Shown: positions 19,580 through 37,773 of the stretch, piece by piece
How the letters are laid out: the number at the start of each line of letters is the position of its first letter
How positions within the stretch are numbered: the stretch's first letter is position 1
Virus record (IMG/VR): IMGVR_UViG_2541047728_000005
DNA from: a virus
Taxonomy: Duplodnaviria > Heunggongvirae > Uroviricota > Caudoviricetes
Reading direction: 5' to 3' (one strand)
Length of the DNA stretch: 47,804 bases
The notes under the pieces: model-generated
Databases searched by the model: none
Told to the model about the DNA's origin: nothing
What the model saw: only the letters and a program-made list of their open reading frames with translations
Position numbers and translations under genes: made by a program

Positions 19580-20959
19580 CTACTTAATCAACGGCCGGAA
19601 AGCCGCCAGCACATCATCAGATCGTCCGATTGTTGAACCACCAGGCAACGGCAACTCAAACTCAAAACGAACAGCTTTCTCCAGACTCGCCCAACTAAGG
19701 GAATCATCGTTAATGACGTGCAAATACCAGCTCTTACAGTTGAATATTGACCGCTTAATCCTGAAACCATGTACACGACACAACTGCTTCACTTCCTCAT
19801 CAGAGTGAAACTTCTGGTAAAACCAGTGCCCCTTCCGGTACAACGCGGTAAAACCGTCATGATCAATAAAATAAAGCCGGCTTTTGGAACTCGCCGCTTG
19901 TGTTTGCTTCAGGACTGTTTCCAGTTCTCCACGGCTACGGCCAGAAAAGAATATTGACCCACCAGCTTTACACAGGCCTTTCAGAACCGTCAGAACGGAC
20001 CATTCAGCCTCGACACTATCGACCGAGTTCAAAACGCTATCGCAAATCACGTAGTCGTAACGCCCTCGCGTTTTTAAGTCGTCCACCAGCGTATCAATCA
20101 TCCGGTTTGTTGCGGCCCTATCCAGAGTGTTTCCAGCGCCCTTACGGCGGAAAAGCTCGAGATCATGCAGGTTATATCCCTTTGCCCTGAGCATTCGCGC
20201 GTAGTCTCCCTGCCCCGAACCAAAATCAATTCCTCTTGGCGTCTTGGCAATGATCGGGAGGATCAACGACTCATACAGATTTGATTTCAGGCTGCCACCA
20301 TTACGCAACCGCATAAGCTGCGCATACGTCTGGATGTATGTTGTTTTCTCCAGATGAGAATACTCAAATACACCATAAGTTTTATTCAGATAACTTTGGT
20401 ATTTTTCCTTCTCAACATCAGGGATCACAAACACCGTTAGCGGTGTGCGCGTCATTTTCGCTGCTAATGCATACTGAGCACAGTGAATAACCTCACCAGA
20501 CTGAGTAGCAACACAACCACCCCACGGACCATACTTGATAACCAGTTCCGCTATGTTCTTTCGAACATATGCCATTTTCGCGCGCATATTGCCTGAGATC
20601 TGGCTTGCCGATACCTGAACAAAACCATGCTTATCTTCCAGACCGGACACCCTGCAACGCTCATCTCCGCTATCAAAATCCGTTCCGTTATGCAGTTGGT
20701 TAAACCGTACTTCGTCGTATACCGTCGTTTCACAGGGCAACACATACACCGCAGCACGCGTTATTCCCAACTTACGTAGCGCCTTCGTCCTTTGGTGTCC
20801 CGCCACCAGCAAATCGCCGCGCACTATCAATGGCTTCACAAGCCCCAGCTCCCTGACGCTTTCCGCCAGCCTCGCAAGATCATCCTCACCGATAAAACGC
20901 GGGTTATATTCCGCGCCGCGTAGGTGCGTTATGTCGTAATTGAGGTGAAGCATCAGCAC
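19580..20959 (-). CDS. ParB-N domain fused to class I SAM-dependent methyltransferase
   Basis: 459 aa; N-terminal LIVRGDLLVAGHQRTKALRKLG (ParB-N) and central IDFGSGQGDYARMLR (SAM-binding motif I); no DPPY/NPPY-type motif seen. Confidence 0.7.
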   Translation of the reverse strand: MLMLHLNYDITHLRGAEYNPRFIGEDDLARLAESVRELGLVKPLIVRGDLLVAGHQRTKALRKLGITRAAVYVLPCETTVYDEVRFNQLHNGTDFDSGDERCRVSGLEDKHGFVQVSASQISGNMRAKMAYVRKNIAELVIKYGPWGGCVATQSGEVIHCAQYALAAKMTRTPLTVFVIPDVEKEKYQSYLNKTYGVFEYSHLEKTTYIQTYAQLMRLRNGGSLKSNLYESLILPIIAKTPRGIDFGSGQGDYARMLRAKGYNLHDLELFRRKGAGNTLDRAATNRMIDTLVDDLKTRGRYDYVICDSVLNSVDSVEAEWSVLTVLKGLCKAGGSIFFSGRSRGELETVLKQTQAASSKSRLYFIDHDGFTALYRKGHWFYQKFHSDEEVKQLCRVHGFRIKRSIFNCKSWYLHVINDDSLSWASLEKAVRFEFELPLPGGSTIGRSDDVLAAFRPLIK

Positions 20960-24452: not shown

Positions 24453-24528
24453 TGGTGGCCCCTACCGGATTTGAACCGATGACCGTGCGATTATGAGTCG
24501 CCTGCTCTAACCACTGAGCTAAGGGGCC
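24453..24528 (-). tRNA. tRNA with CAT anticodon, tRNA-Ile2 (lysidine)-like; could alternatively be Met
   Basis: Minus-strand GGCCCCTTAGCTCAGTGGTTAGAGCAGGCGACTCATAATCGC...GGTTCAAATCCGGTAGGGGCCACCA; cloverleaf with 7-bp acceptor stem, encoded CCA; 5' 42 nt match my recollection of E. coli ileX. Confidence 0.85.
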
Positions 24529-34346: not shown

Positions 34347-34367
34347 AAACACATGGAGTCTCGACAA

Positions 34368-35021
34368 ATGACTATCTCTGTAGGTATTTTCAACGGAAAA
34401 GGCGGCGTAACCAAATCAACAATTGCCCGTGCTTTAGCAGTTGCTTATGCAAAGGCCGGCTGGAATGTATGCCTGATCGATATGGATGTGCTTAACGGAA
34501 CGGTAACGCGTTGGGTACAACGCAGAATGGCCAACAATATCGAACCTGCAATCGCGGCGCAGCCGTGCGGCACGCCATCACAAGTCCAGAAAATCATCGA
34601 ATCAGAAGTATACGACCTGGTTATCGTCGATGGCGGTGCCTACGCATCTGAATCAGTACCGAAGCTCTCTGAATTTCTGGATATGGTTATTTTGCCAACC
34701 AGATTCTCTACCGATGACCTAGAAACCACCGTTAACACAGCTCACGGCATCGTTAAAAAGGGTGTGCCAATCAAGAAAATTTGCATGGTGTTCTCAGGCG
34801 CGGCTGAAAACGAAGCCGACTACATTGAAGCCCAAGAGTACCTAGCTAATACGCCATACTTTGTTGTCGATAAGTACATTCCCCACAAGCCAGCTCTGAG
34901 CAAAGCTCAGGATAAGGGCTTAAGCCTCATTGAATGCTCATACGTTGCGCCACGCAAAAAGGCAGACGACGTTATTCAGGGGATTATCAACCAGCTTGAG
35001 GCTCTGACTACTGCCGCGTAA
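34368..35021 (+). CDS. parA: ParA-family partition ATPase (small, type Ib-like)
   Basis: Deviant Walker A GKGGVTKST; ~217 aa from GGAG RBS-supported ATG at 34368. Confidence 0.85.
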   Translation: MTISVGIFNGKGGVTKSTIARALAVAYAKAGWNVCLIDMDVLNGTVTRWVQRRMANNIEPAIAAQPCGTPSQVQKIIESEVYDLVIVDGGAYASESVPKLSEFLDMVILPTRFSTDDLETTVNTAHGIVKKGVPIKKICMVFSGAAENEADYIEAQEYLANTPYFVVDKYIPHKPALSKAQDKGLSLIECSYVAPRKKADDVIQGIINQLEALTTAA

Positions 35022-35056
35022 TATATAATTATAGTTTTATAGATTTATATAAGAGG
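35021..35056. promoter_or_regulatory. TATA-rich palindromic repeat array between parA and RHH gene
   Basis: atatataattatagttttatagatttatataagagg. Confidence 0.45.
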
Positions 35057-35064
35057 GGATACAC

Positions 35065-35313
35065 ATGGCCGGACCATCAAAACCACCAAAGAAGAACAGC
35101 AAAGGCGTACCGCCATCGATCGAACAACCGCAGGTTTTCGACCCGACTGAAACGCCAACCAGAACCAAATCAGGTGGGGCACAAATGGCGTTTAACGTCG
35201 ACCCTGAATTTAAACGCGAGTACAAAACGTTCGCCAGCTCAATGGATATGTCATTGAAAGAAGTGCTGACAAAATCTTTTGAGTTACTCAAGGCTCAATA
35301 CAACCAGAAGTAA
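35065..35313 (+). CDS. Ribbon-helix-helix centromere-binding protein (ParG-like)
   Basis: 82 aa; flexible basic N-tail then AFNVDPEFKREYKTFASSMDMSLKEVLTKSFELL RHH-like fold; AGAGGGG RBS. Confidence 0.55.
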   Translation: MAGPSKPPKKNSKGVPPSIEQPQVFDPTETPTRTKSGGAQMAFNVDPEFKREYKTFASSMDMSLKEVLTKSFELLKAQYNQK

Positions 35314-35534: not shown

Positions 35535-35557
35535 TAAAAAAGGCCCCCGAAGGGGCC
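35535..35557 (-). terminator. Rho-independent terminator oriented for minus-strand transcripts
   Basis: Minus strand GGCCCC-ttc-GGGGGCC followed by TTTTTTT; 7 nt after stop of small ORF 35564..35686. Confidence 0.65.
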
Positions 35558-35563
35558 TAATCG

Positions 35564-35686
35564 CTACTTGCTGCTAATGTTTATCGTCACATTCAGAGCG
35601 TTATCAGTAATCTTCCAACCCTCCCCATGTGGCGTAAACAAAGCCCCAGTAACAACGATAAAAATACACATACAGTATTTTTTCAT
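35564..35686 (-). CDS. Small hydrophobic peptide (40 aa), candidate type I toxin-like or small membrane protein
   Basis: MKKYCMCIFIVVTGALFTPHGEGWKITDNALNVTINISSK; AAGGG RBS 7 nt upstream; strong terminator immediately downstream. Confidence 0.45.
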   Translation of the reverse strand: MKKYCMCIFIVVTGALFTPHGEGWKITDNALNVTINISSK

Positions 35687-35917
35687 TGTATGGCCCTTAC
35701 AGGCCGTTTCACGGCATCCCCACCGACGAAAACAACGCGAGAGCAAGCACGGCTGCTTGTGCTTGCATGTACGGCAACGGAGAATCCTCCCCTAAAGTCG
35801 GTGCCCGGGTGCGAATCGGCGGGAAGGTCCACAGGTATTTTACGATTATTTTAAGATTAGTAATAGGAAAGAAATTAAACGAAAAAACTCGTTTATTTTC
35901 ACAAAATCAGTAACCTA

Positions 35918-35932
35918 CCCACAATCTGTGAG
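35918..35932. promoter_or_regulatory. Operator-like site related to O2
   Basis: cccacaatctgtgag vs O2 accacatatcgtgag. Confidence 0.35.
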
Positions 35933-36004
35933 TTTGCAGGCACAACAAGAACCACAATTTTTTGAAGCATAATAGTGGACTATTATTACCTTTTGGGTAA
36001 AATT

Positions 36005-36111
36005 AACTTGCTGCTTGTGCTTGCGTGGTTGTTTATACAACGACGTTATGCTGAAAGGACCGCGAATCCGATCAGCACGAAAGAACCGTCCTCAATAGGG
36101 CGGTTTTTTTG
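36005..36111 (+). ncRNA. Candidate small RNA ending at intrinsic terminator; carries 15-nt repeat complementary to the opposite-strand transcript region at 35753..35767
   Basis: TAAAAT -10-like at 35998..36003; gctgcttgtgcttgc at 36010..36024 repeated at 35753..35767; hairpin CCGTCC-ucaaua-GGGCGG plus T7 at 36084..36111. Confidence 0.35.
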
Positions 36112-36179: not shown

Positions 36180-36279
36180 GCGCCATTGGTGGACACTTTC
36201 CGAGCCGTAGCAAAATCTACGGTCGGGATTGGAACCCCGATAATCATCATGGCGCATACCGCGTTAGCGGTTTTTTTAT
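36180..36279 (+). ncRNA. Structured RNA segment ending at intrinsic terminator in antirepressor operon leader
   Basis: Hairpins CCGTAG-caaaat-CTACGG, CGGG-attggaa-CCCG, terminator ACCGC-gtta-GCGGT plus TTTTTTT at 36259..36279. Confidence 0.35.
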
Positions 36280-36442
36280 GCGTAAAGCACTGCTACACCC
36301 AAATTATGGTGGGGCGTGCGGGGGAGTCGTAAGACTCGCCGGATTCCATGGTGACCGGTAGTTCCAACCCTGTACGTCTCACCACCCAATGATTGGAACC
36401 AGACGGTGGTGAGTATCCTTAACCTTTAAGGGAACTATCACC

Positions 36443-36634
36443 ATGACAAACTTACCCCATGACTATTACGTCAACCTCGTAAAGATCCTTCTCAAGAAAG
36501 CCTCATACGCCGATAAATTCCGCCTAGCTGAAATCATCGAGCGCGAAGCTATGCGCATCGCCAGCAACGATAACGCTGTTTCTGACGCAAAAATCTCCCT
36601 CGTAACCAAAGTAGTTATGGGAGGTGCAAAATGA
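36443..36634 (+). CDS. Small protein preceding antirepressor (icd-like position)
   Basis: 63-aa ORF overlapping start of antirepressor gene (ATGA); AAGGGA RBS. Confidence 0.45.
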   Translation: MTNLPHDYYVNLVKILLKKASYADKFRLAEIIEREAMRIASNDNAVSDAKISLVTKVVMGGAK

Positions 36635-37773
36635 AAACGCTTCCGACCGTTAACACCCTACAGCCTATCTTGCATAACCAGATCCCCGTTATTACAACTG
36701 AACTTCTGGCGCAGTTATACGGAACAAAAATCAAAAACATTTCTGATAACTTTCTGAACAACACGACGCGATTCATAGCCGGAAAGCATTACTTTAAAAT
36801 TGAAAAAAACGAATTACGCGAGTTCAAGAACAGACCTGAAACAATCGGGTTAGTTGGTAAAAATGCCCGCTCCCTCATTCTCTGGACAGAACGCGGGGCT
36901 GCACGTCACGCCAAAATGCTCGAAACCGATCAGGCGTGGGATGTATTCGAACGGCTGGAAGACTGCTATTTCAGCCAGAACGCGCAAACGGCCGCGACCG
37001 TAACCGTCTCGCCAAACAATGCTCGTGAGGTTGTCGATACGCTCAACGCCAAACCGATGTTTTACATTAAAGTGTGCAACAACGAGCCACTCACAACCTC
37101 AGCCGATGTTGCCCAAGCATTCAGCACCACAAACAATTCCATCGTTATGGCCATCGATGCGCTACGCATTCCTCGCACGGCTGCGGCGCGTCACTTCTTT
37201 AAAGAGCAACGACCGCTGGAAGGAAGCGACCGCGAAATAACAATCTATCGCATGACAAAAGACGGATTTACCTTGCTCATGGAGAGCATCGACGGTCCAA
37301 GCGTGAAAGATATCAAGCTGGCCTACATTGAAGCCTTTAACGCTATCAGCAGCGTGTTAAAAACACAGTACGAGCGTGATCTGGCTAAACGACTGTACCA
37401 GGAAAAAACGATTATCCGCGCGGCAACAGAGCATAATCGGCTATTAACGGAACCGAACTACAGGAAGGAACTAATCAAGGCGTTTGACAAGGCAACAGGG
37501 AAAACCAAAGCGGCGCTAAATCTGCCAGCAATGACTCAGGAAAATGTGATATCAGCCTTACTTCTTGATCTGCTCAGAAACGCCAGAGCACTTATCAGCT
37601 TTGACGAAAACCTGAATCCTCAGCTCAAGCTACTACCACCGACAGGCAAAGTAGTCGACCAAGCTGATCACAACAGCATACTCAGCGTACTGGATGCAAA
37701 CCTGCCAGCCAAGACACTACAGGATCTGATAAAAACATGTGCTGATAAGCTGGCACAGAAAAGCAGACCATAA
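36631..37773 (+). CDS. Antirepressor-like protein (ORF6N/KilA-N-type N-terminal domain)
   Basis: 380 aa; N-terminal ITTELLAQLYGTKIKNISDNFLNNTTRFIAGKHYFKIEKNELREFK...LWTERGAARHAKMLETDQAWDVFERLEDCYF matches ORF6N-type antirepressor pattern. Confidence 0.65.
   Translation: MKTLPTVNTLQPILHNQIPVITTELLAQLYGTKIKNISDNFLNNTTRFIAGKHYFKIEKNELREFKNRPETIGLVGKNARSLILWTERGAARHAKMLETDQAWDVFERLEDCYFSQNAQTAATVTVSPNNAREVVDTLNAKPMFYIKVCNNEPLTTSADVAQAFSTTNNSIVMAIDALRIPRTAAARHFFKEQRPLEGSDREITIYRMTKDGFTLLMESIDGPSVKDIKLAYIEAFNAISSVLKTQYERDLAKRLYQEKTIIRAATEHNRLLTEPNYRKELIKAFDKATGKTKAALNLPAMTQENVISALLLDLLRNARALISFDENLNPQLKLLPPTGKVVDQADHNSILSVLDANLPAKTLQDLIKTCADKLAQKSRP

Follow-up and report, generated by a model that had tools for sequence, protein, structure and literature searches.

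What kind of system is formed by the gene of a short hydrophobic peptide and an apparent small RNA (sRNA) gene that share a 15-nucleotide (nt) repeat in the DNA of a tailed phage? The locus that raises this question lies in the IMG/VR virus record IMGVR_UViG_2541047728_000005, a stretch of 47.8 kb (47,804 nt) that is referred to here as the window and whose positions serve as coordinates throughout. A sequence-only reading, made from the letters of the window alone, had proposed a pair laid out like the trans-acting type I toxin-antitoxin systems tisB/istR and zor/orz, in which the sRNA would pair with the leader of the peptide mRNA, and had recognised no family for the peptide. That reasoning turned out to be essentially correct, and the system is of a known kind. 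The locus is very probably a diverged timPR-type type I toxin-antitoxin module on a myovirus-type phage-plasmid. The trans-acting type I layout is supported by the homology of the mRNA to Rfam ryfA, of the peptide to TimP and of the sRNA to TimR, and peptide and RNA in fact belong to the known TimP/ryfA family.

The RNA ryfA was first catalogued as non-coding. It is now known as the messenger of timP, which encodes the toxin of the type I system timPR and whose translation is repressed by TimR, a divergently encoded sRNA (PMC7667032). In Escherichia coli K-12, timR, ryfA and timP are annotated between sseA and sseB. In Salmonella, TimP has been detected and is toxic, and its repression by TimR has been shown experimentally (PMC7667032, PMC11228461, PMC13000454). 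The Salmonella timP leader is composed of four stem-loops (SL1 to SL4), of which SL2 is bound by TimR and SL4 traps the Shine-Dalgarno sequence; a pseudoknot of 7 base pairs (bp) between upper SL1 and the SL3 loop is required for translation and is disrupted by TimR binding (PMC11228461). In addition, an interaction between site 2 and site 4 opens SL4, and an interaction between site 1 and site 2 locks the inactive form (PMC13000454).

The timP-like mRNA, its leader and the encoded peptide

In an Rfam scan of the whole window, positions 35832..35536 on the minus strand match ryfA (RF00126) with 141.8 bits (gathering score 80; E=1.7e-36) over model positions 1-296 of 296. Apart from ryfA, only isrK, C4 and one tRNA match above the gathering score, and no match to the tisB/istR-1, zor/orz, shoB/ohsC or hok/sok families was found anywhere in the window. 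The mRNA can be aligned over its full length with K-12 ryfA and 18 further homologues. All sister elements match ryfA as well, at 129-142 bits, the lowest scores among the homologues scored (180-315 bits for the others), and the phage-plasmid clade appears on these scores as the most diverged branch among the homologues examined. A blastn search of 5,426 E. coli genomes at "distant" sensitivity recovered the phage-plasmid copies only, not chromosomal ryfA; the homology to K-12 shows up only with the covariance model, with the peptide and in targeted alignment. Because it lies on a phage-plasmid and not between sseA and sseB, the locus is a xenologue and not the orthologue of chromosomal ryfA.

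The timP-like mRNA is predicted to be ~297 nt long (35536..35832, minus strand). Its probable start is the G at 35832, and a putative promoter is read from a -10-like TAAAAT (35839..35844, minus strand) located 6 nt upstream of it, with a poor -35 element; the same -10 position reads TAATAT or TAACAT in sister plasmids. The start codon is found at mRNA nt 147 in the window and K-12 alike. As the sequence-only reading had described, an open reading frame (ORF) on the minus strand (35686..35564, 40 codons plus stop) encodes a 40-residue peptide with a hydrophobic N-terminal stretch, MKKYCMCIFIVVTGALFTPHGEGWKITDNALNVTINISSK, and is preceded by a good ribosome-binding site (RBS), the Shine-Dalgarno sequence AAGGG (35694-35698, mRNA nt 135-139), 7 nt ahead of the ATG. 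The terminator that had been placed 7 nt after the ORF is present and begins 5 nt past the stop codon: a G+C-rich hairpin (35558..35541) with a 7-bp stem, six pairs of which are G-C, is followed by TTTTTT (whole terminator 35536..35558), and the 3' end of the mRNA lies past this T run. A further promoter-like site, GTGAAA-16-TACAAT, occurs inside the leader just ahead of the ATG (35685-35712, minus strand). Its TACAAT overlaps the conserved ACAAUG start context, so the site is probably incidental; if active, it would yield a leaderless-like transcript without the TimR site.

The structure of the leader was examined on a 20-sequence alignment of homologous mRNAs (A3), in which the tertiary pairs were written in explicitly. 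RNAalifold recovers SL1 to SL4 from this alignment. Across the 20 homologues the whole leader structure is 95.4% paired, with compensatory changes in 13 pairs. None of 500 shuffles reaches the observed value for any whole-structure measure, and pairing falls to 40-56% when the partners are slid by 1-3 columns. One upper-SL1 pair (columns 16-29) was specified in the wrong register, and the helix-2 figure for it is disregarded.

The SL1-SL3 pseudoknot is formed in the window by site 1, CACCGAC (mRNA nt 30-36; 35797..35803, minus strand), in upper SL1 and its perfect complement, site 3, GUCGGUG (mRNA nt 106-112; 35721..35727, minus strand), in the SL3 loop, which gives 7 Watson-Crick pairs. Across the homologues, 97.9% of the cells in this helix are paired and compensatory change is seen in 4 of the 7 pairs, both figures being a matter of complementarity only. 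Most homologues have CACCGGA/UCCGGUG and K-12 has CGCUGGC/GCCAGUG, so that the CACCGAC/GUCGGUG of the phage-plasmid clade is, as read from the alignment, a clade-specific double compensatory change. Site 2, GCCGU (mRNA nt 58-62; 35771..35775, minus strand), makes 5 bp with site 4, ACGGC, a helix that is 94.8% paired across the homologues; in the phage-plasmid clade its outer pair has been lost, and a G-U and a U-G pair have turned into G-C and U-A. In the consensus structure, site 4 and SL4 with the Shine-Dalgarno sequence occupy 35692..35707 (minus strand), and the stem of SL4 holds the GGG of the latter.

The peptide aligns end to end with K-12 TimP, MKIRCFCIVLIVSGALLTEVNNNRSLSGDNLLVVNNLQSSK, at 40% identity, and it is 49-51% identical to the plasmid-borne TimPs of Yersinia pseudotuberculosis pGDT4 and Serratia pJSRIV001_1 (47.5-51% over tblastn and alignment). 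Overall, its nearest relatives are Yersiniaceae and Erwiniaceae copies, those on conjugative plasmids included. Ten residues, M1, C7, I8, V12, G14, A15, L16, V33, N36 and K40, are invariant among the TimPs aligned. The sole NCBIfam match is NF040796 (toxic_TimP), with E=7.1e-5 and residues 1-40 of 40 aligned, a match whose score is weighed below; Pfam gave no family for the window peptide and none for K-12 TimP. After MKK, a hydrophobic stretch of 14 residues resembles a signal anchor, and the Kyte-Doolittle mean of residues 4-17 is 2.36, compared with 2.34 in K-12. Two other kinds of peptide were considered and rejected from inspection of the residues, namely a lipoprotein, as no lipobox precedes the cysteines, and a cleaved secreted peptide, as no small residues stand at -1/-3 after the hydrophobic stretch.

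The minus-strand RNA could instead be mainly a non-coding regulatory "RyfA sRNA" that acts on host stress, biofilm and virulence genes, with an incidental ORF and a plus-strand RNA that titrates it. This is how ryfA was originally described, RyfA and TimR are still treated as regulatory sRNAs in several reports on uropathogenic and avian pathogenic E. coli (PMC8205139, PMC10664665, PMC13188913), and the conservation of the leader exceeds what coding alone would need. The pattern of substitutions is, however, that of a translated sequence. The ORF is intact (39-41 codons) in all 20 homologous mRNAs, diverse as they are, every indel is a multiple of 3, and codon position 3 has the greatest column entropy (0.97), ahead of positions 1 (0.65) and 2 (0.41). 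Conservation of the peptide reaches from E. coli to Erwinia, TimP has been detected and is toxic in Salmonella (PMC7667032), and the conserved leader elements are those that have been shown to control translation, all of which makes a purely regulatory RNA improbable here.

The TimR-like RNA and its predicted pairing with the leader

The plus-strand unit is preceded by a promoter-like site that contains the -10-like TAAAAT noted from the sequence (TGGACT-16-TAAAAT, 35976..36003, plus strand), from which transcription would be expected to start at ~36010. A TimR-like antitoxin sRNA of ~102 nt (36010..36111, plus strand) is predicted from homology and from a fold that RNAfold lays out as in K-12 TimR, with an unpaired 5' end followed by two hairpins and a terminator. 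In the window these parts are the single-stranded 5' seed (36010-36027), a first hairpin (36023-36046), a body hairpin (36049-36077) and the unit's own terminator (36078-36111), which was rightly anticipated and which RNAfold gives as a hairpin at ~36078..36111 with a U run; it aligns with the TimR terminators of other species. Over their whole length, the sRNA of the window and 17 TimR homologues, annotated K-12 TimR among them, can be aligned, with three conserved blocks: GUGCUUGCGU, a hairpin CUGCUGG...CCAGCA and the terminator. The central body hairpin carries three compensatory pairs in the phage-plasmid clade (G-C to A-U, A-U to G-C and G-C to A-U). None of the Rfam families matched covers this sRNA.

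The two units had been called convergent. They are divergent, being transcribed outwards from a spacer of 177 bp. The shared 15-mer, GCTGCTTGTGCTTGC, occurs in two exact copies, of which the second was correctly placed at 36010..36024, whereas the first lies at 35752..35766, one base to the left of the 35753..35767 given for it. Copy 2 begins 7 nt past the promoter-like site, at the 5' end of the sRNA. There are exactly two occurrences in the whole 47.8-kb window, and 0 of 100 dinucleotide-preserving shuffles attain the number of matches seen, with a shuffle mean of 0.14 matches at up to 2 mismatches. One copy with 2 mismatches, GCCGCTTGTGTTTGC, is found at 19893-19907 (plus strand), within a 459-residue minus-strand ORF whose mRNA would partly complement the TimR seed. 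Given the expectation of 0.14 such matches, it is probably due to chance.

The predicted pairing with the leader holds and extends beyond the 15 nt that had been claimed. Nucleotides 1-18 of the sRNA form 18 contiguous bp, one of them G-U, with mRNA nt 64-81, CAUGCAAGCACAAGCAGC (35752..35769, minus strand), a target that includes the repeat and spans the 5' half and the loop of SL2 (hairpin 35743-35766). RNA duplex prediction, which had been suggested as a check, gives -35.5 kcal/mol for the cognate seed duplex compared with -21.0 +/- 2.6 kcal/mol for shuffled seeds. This figure refers to the seed only; full-length RNAduplex was discarded, as it returned long interrupted duplexes with a shuffled mean as low as the real value, and was replaced by a contiguous-pair scan and seed-only duplex energies. 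The scan looked in 20 loci for stretches able to pair with mRNA nt 56-95 on the strand opposite the mRNA, in the region upstream of it; the loci comprised the window, 4 sister phage-plasmids/phages, 2 conjugative plasmids, K-12 and 12 gene copies taken from assemblies of Yersinia, Erwinia, Pantoea and Kalamiella. All loci but one have 13-28 contiguous pairs that start at the 5' end of a ~90-104-nt unit ending in a terminator, and in these loci the target always lies inside mRNA nt 63-92; in K-12, pairing covers 19-20 bp at mRNA nt 64-83. The exception is a rearranged copy in Yersinia similis.

Seed and target change together. The window has AAGCAGC both in the mRNA target and in the sRNA gene on the same strand, whereas vB_YpM_39, ATCC 25922, E300082, strain 222 and GMI14 have AAACAG at both places and JE86 has AAGCGG at both; one further difference between seed and target, A versus G (GCAAGC/GCAGGC), amounts to a G-U pair. 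Compensatory changes have preserved the seed-target pair, the SL1-SL3 pseudoknot and the TimR body hairpin alike. Cross-duplexes with the K-12 partners reach -18.9 and -19.4 kcal/mol, the background level, so that the plasmid system and that of the host chromosome should not cross-regulate.

Several observations weigh against placing the locus among functional timPR modules. With NF040796 the peptide scores 23 bits, under the curated cut-off of 45 and far below the 86.8 of K-12 TimP. SL4 is weaker than in K-12 (-8.9 versus -13.5 kcal/mol), and site 1-site 2 pairing in its published register reads C-G, G-C, A.C, C-G, with an internal mismatch in the clade; the covariation signal of this pairing is not above shuffles in the 20 homologues. 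Moreover, deletion of timR at native expression did not stop growth in Salmonella (PMC7667032), for which reason a killing or addiction role is not assured. As NF040796 is the only family matched, its low score reflects divergence and not another family, while the weaker SL4 and the mismatched sites mean that the structural switch may behave differently here.

Together with the lowest Rfam scores of the homologues examined, the low peptide score, the weakened SL4 and the mismatched site 1-site 2 pairing would also suit a decaying, non-functional remnant of timPR acquired from a host or a plasmid. Decay is nonetheless very unlikely. The compensatory changes within and into the clade maintain the seed-target pair, the pseudoknot and the TimR hairpin, and both terminators and both -10 elements are kept. 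In seven sister elements that are 80-100% identical over the locus, the transcribed units are near invariant and the 177-bp promoter spacer has diverged, with TGGACT being kept in sister plasmids despite the diverged remainder. The ORF is unbroken in 58 phage-plasmid records as well as in 3 phages and 7 IMG/VR contigs, no frameshift or stop being present in any record examined.

Other copies of ryfA/timP show further variation. Tandem duplicates are found in Kalamiella and Erwinia contigs (L014 1053-1353 and 1545-1845; L018; L021). The copies of a pair differ in their SL2 target, and each has an upstream partner able to pair with it, which hints at insulation of paralogues through seed divergence; in one Erwinia pair the same upstream seed was recovered for both copies, so that separate TimRs are not shown for every pair. 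The Yersinia similis ryfA (L012 1070-1353) is rearranged at its 5' end, with SL1 missing from the alignment, and adjoins a match to the sRNA Ysr224. The upstream pairing scan found no TimR partner for it, the best pairing being 9 bp, and this copy may be orphaned or decaying. In K-12, the IS128 RNA (RF00125; L003 2016-2224) lies between timR and ryfA. It contains a copy of 16 nt that correspond to ryfA positions 2-17, 321 nt upstream of the ryfA start, apparently a duplicated piece of the toxin mRNA leader.

The phage-plasmid and what the module may do for it

Two stretches of the window, one of 1.2 kb and one of 586 bp, were compared with the E. coli plasmid pMB9698_3 (47.7 kb, circular), and both are 100% identical to it. 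This plasmid encodes virion and lysis proteins (capsid, portal, terminase, tail sheath, tail tube, baseplate, holin and endolysin) as well as RepA, ParA and a RelE/ParE pair, and its virion module is 98.7-99.8% identical to those of the isolated phages vB_YpM_39/41/44 and vB_EcoM-613R2. The combination of virion genes, RepA and ParA with kinship to isolated phages identifies the element of the window as a phage-plasmid of ~48 kb and of the myovirus type. Near-identical plasmid NZ_CP103471.1 carries a type II RelE/ParE-family toxin with a helix-turn-helix (HTH) partner (L029 18917-19563), which besides timPR gives the element at least two toxin-antitoxin modules. The tRNA gene of the window (24456-24528, minus strand; 67 bits) is probably the tRNA-Ile that is annotated in a near-identical RefSeq plasmid.

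The locus is conserved in ~60 phage-plasmids and 3 isolated phages. In the E. coli genomes it has 74 matching places, 73 of them on plasmids, and the interval carries no annotation from the NCBI Prokaryotic Genome Annotation Pipeline (PGAP) in any of the 72 matching E. coli records, which is consistent with a peptide score below the NF040796 cut-off. Some 60 sequenced phage-plasmids of E. coli, Klebsiella and Escherichia albertii and 3 isolated Yersinia phages carry a type I toxin gene and antitoxin RNA hidden from annotation. The quality-control strain ATCC 25922 is among the unannotated carriers, with plasmid pATCC25922_4 as the element and the locus at NZ_CP117232.1 7089-7667.

The module is flanked by a parA-parG-like partition cassette (34353-35313) and, directly downstream of the TimR-like sRNA and co-oriented with it, by an immunity cassette. 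The latter consists of an isrK-like RNA (36204-36277, 70.2 bits), a C4 antisense RNA (36302-36389, 84.3 bits) and, downstream of C4, a 63-residue ORF followed by a 380-residue ORF6N/antirepressor-like ORF (36443-37773); the stretch is a cassette like P1 immI and Gifsy-1 isrK-anrP. The ATCC 25922 plasmid and phage vB_YpM_39 have, inserted between timR and isrK, an opposite-strand XRE/HTH gene that is absent from the window (L004 2056-2628; L002 3818-4357). Its 3' end in L004 (from 2056) overlaps the TimR terminator, the last bases of the matched locus (1501-2079), and in L002 the gene starts just outside the locus match; in those elements the insertion leaves the toxin-antitoxin pair on the side of the partition genes. 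That the plus-strand unit is really the 5' leader of the immunity operon, with the repeat linking immunity control to the peptide gene, is hardly credible. The unit does share its orientation with isrK, C4 and the antirepressor-like ORFs, and only ~90 nt separate it from isrK downstream. Its end, however, is a conserved intrinsic terminator with homology to the terminators of chromosomal TimRs, the inserted HTH gene leaves the unit undisturbed, and the same sRNA stands beside timP on chromosomes and conjugative plasmids that have no immunity operon at all.

If the timPR-type module works as in Salmonella, it would operate as follows. An mRNA of ~297 nt, transcribed leftwards from ~35832, would encode a TimP-like inner-membrane peptide behind a structured leader of 146 nt, while the TimR-like sRNA of ~102 nt would be made rightwards from ~36010. 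By homology, the mRNA would be made constitutively and mostly held untranslated. In the active leader, the 7-bp SL1-SL3 pseudoknot and the pairing of site 2 with site 4 would free the Shine-Dalgarno sequence from SL4, and this conformation would recruit the 30S subunit. The single-stranded 5' end of the sRNA would bind the active form at SL2 through its 18 bp, more than 60 nt upstream of the RBS, and break the pseudoknot, so that initiation would be blocked. Upon depletion of the sRNA, the signal-anchored peptide would be made and would insert into the inner membrane, causing leakiness or damage. Transcription, toxicity and repression of the window copy are in this way drawn by analogy from its relatives.

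As to its function, where confidence is lower than for the mechanism, the most likely role, again by analogy, would be to stabilise the plasmid prophage, with cells that lose the element being killed or inhibited; alternatively, the module may exclude other phages. A tentative extension is that the phage-plasmid copy might be a specialised timPR that is insulated from the chromosomal one by its own seed, target and pseudoknot and that serves the element. Such a copy may be an addiction module for a low-copy plasmid prophage, set beside the partition genes, or an abortive-infection or exclusion device, which would be triggered by the decay of TimR once an incoming phage has halted transcription. 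If this extension were true, it would provide the first clear biological role for the timPR family and would point to a mobile-element origin of the chromosomal copies.

The gain in knowledge is incremental, and the system is not of a new kind, since timPR has been studied in depth and one timP on a plasmid, that of pGDT4, already bears this name from PGAP. What is new, in a modest way, is a diverged timPR clade that is fixed in enterobacterial phage-plasmids and phages of a widespread family, with seed and pseudoknot sequences of its own. No paper describing a phage-plasmid timPR locus was found in the literature searched, whose coverage was incomplete, so this is weak evidence of novelty. 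The copy beside parA on a plasmid prophage offers a setting in which phenotypes of plasmid loss and phage exclusion can be tested directly. The clade is also a natural experiment on the RNA-switch model, as it combines a different pseudoknot sequence preserved through double compensatory changes, a weaker SL4, a mismatched site 1-site 2 lock and an orthogonal seed.

Relation to known type I systems

The closest known system is timPR itself (ryfA/timR, formerly ryfA/STnc2070 or RyfA1/RyfB1), which is found on the chromosomes of Salmonella, E. coli and Shigella. The window locus shares with it the mRNA length of ~300 nt, the leader of four stem-loops, the ORF start at nt 147, a peptide of 38-41 residues with an N-terminal signal-like hydrophobic segment, and a divergent sRNA of ~100 nt whose 5' end pairs with SL2 more than 60 nt upstream of the RBS. 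The SL1-SL3 pseudoknot, the pairing of site 2 with site 4 and both terminators are common to the two as well. The window copy differs from chromosomal timPR in its location on a phage-plasmid, in a peptide only 40% identical to K-12 TimP and in its pseudoknot sequence. Compared with K-12, its seed and target are different and not cross-compatible (~-19 kcal/mol), SL4 is weaker, the site 1-site 2 lock is mismatched, and the intergenic spacer measures 177 bp and not ~400 bp; unlike K-12 timPR, which is annotated, the window locus is not recognised by PGAP.

No closer peptide relatives were found than the copies on pGDT4 (NC_011759, annotated timP) and Serratia pJSRIV001_1, which share the motif GGW.I..N...V.IN with the window. 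Like the window copy, both reside on mobile elements, and a divergent TimR-like sRNA accompanies each of them. They differ in that both plasmids are large and conjugative, with the locus amid transfer genes, in their far more canonical ryfA scores (235 and 214 bits) and in promoters that are placed back to back, ~60-70 nt apart.

The systems tisB/istR-1, zorO/orzO and shoB/ohsC resemble the window locus in having a small hydrophobic toxin and a divergent, trans-encoded sRNA that pairs with the leader of the toxin mRNA via a short repeat, distant from the RBS. They have no homology to it in sequence or structure, and their mRNAs need nucleolytic processing, whereas timP is controlled by a purely structural switch (PMC11228461, PMC13000454). 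Plasmid R1's hok/sok is, like the window locus, a type I system on a mobile element. Its toxin family is unrelated, and Sok is a cis-overlapping antisense RNA that acts via the mok leader ORF. The roles known for hok/sok, post-segregational killing and exclusion of T4, would nevertheless be, by analogy, the most plausible ones for the timPR-type locus of the window.

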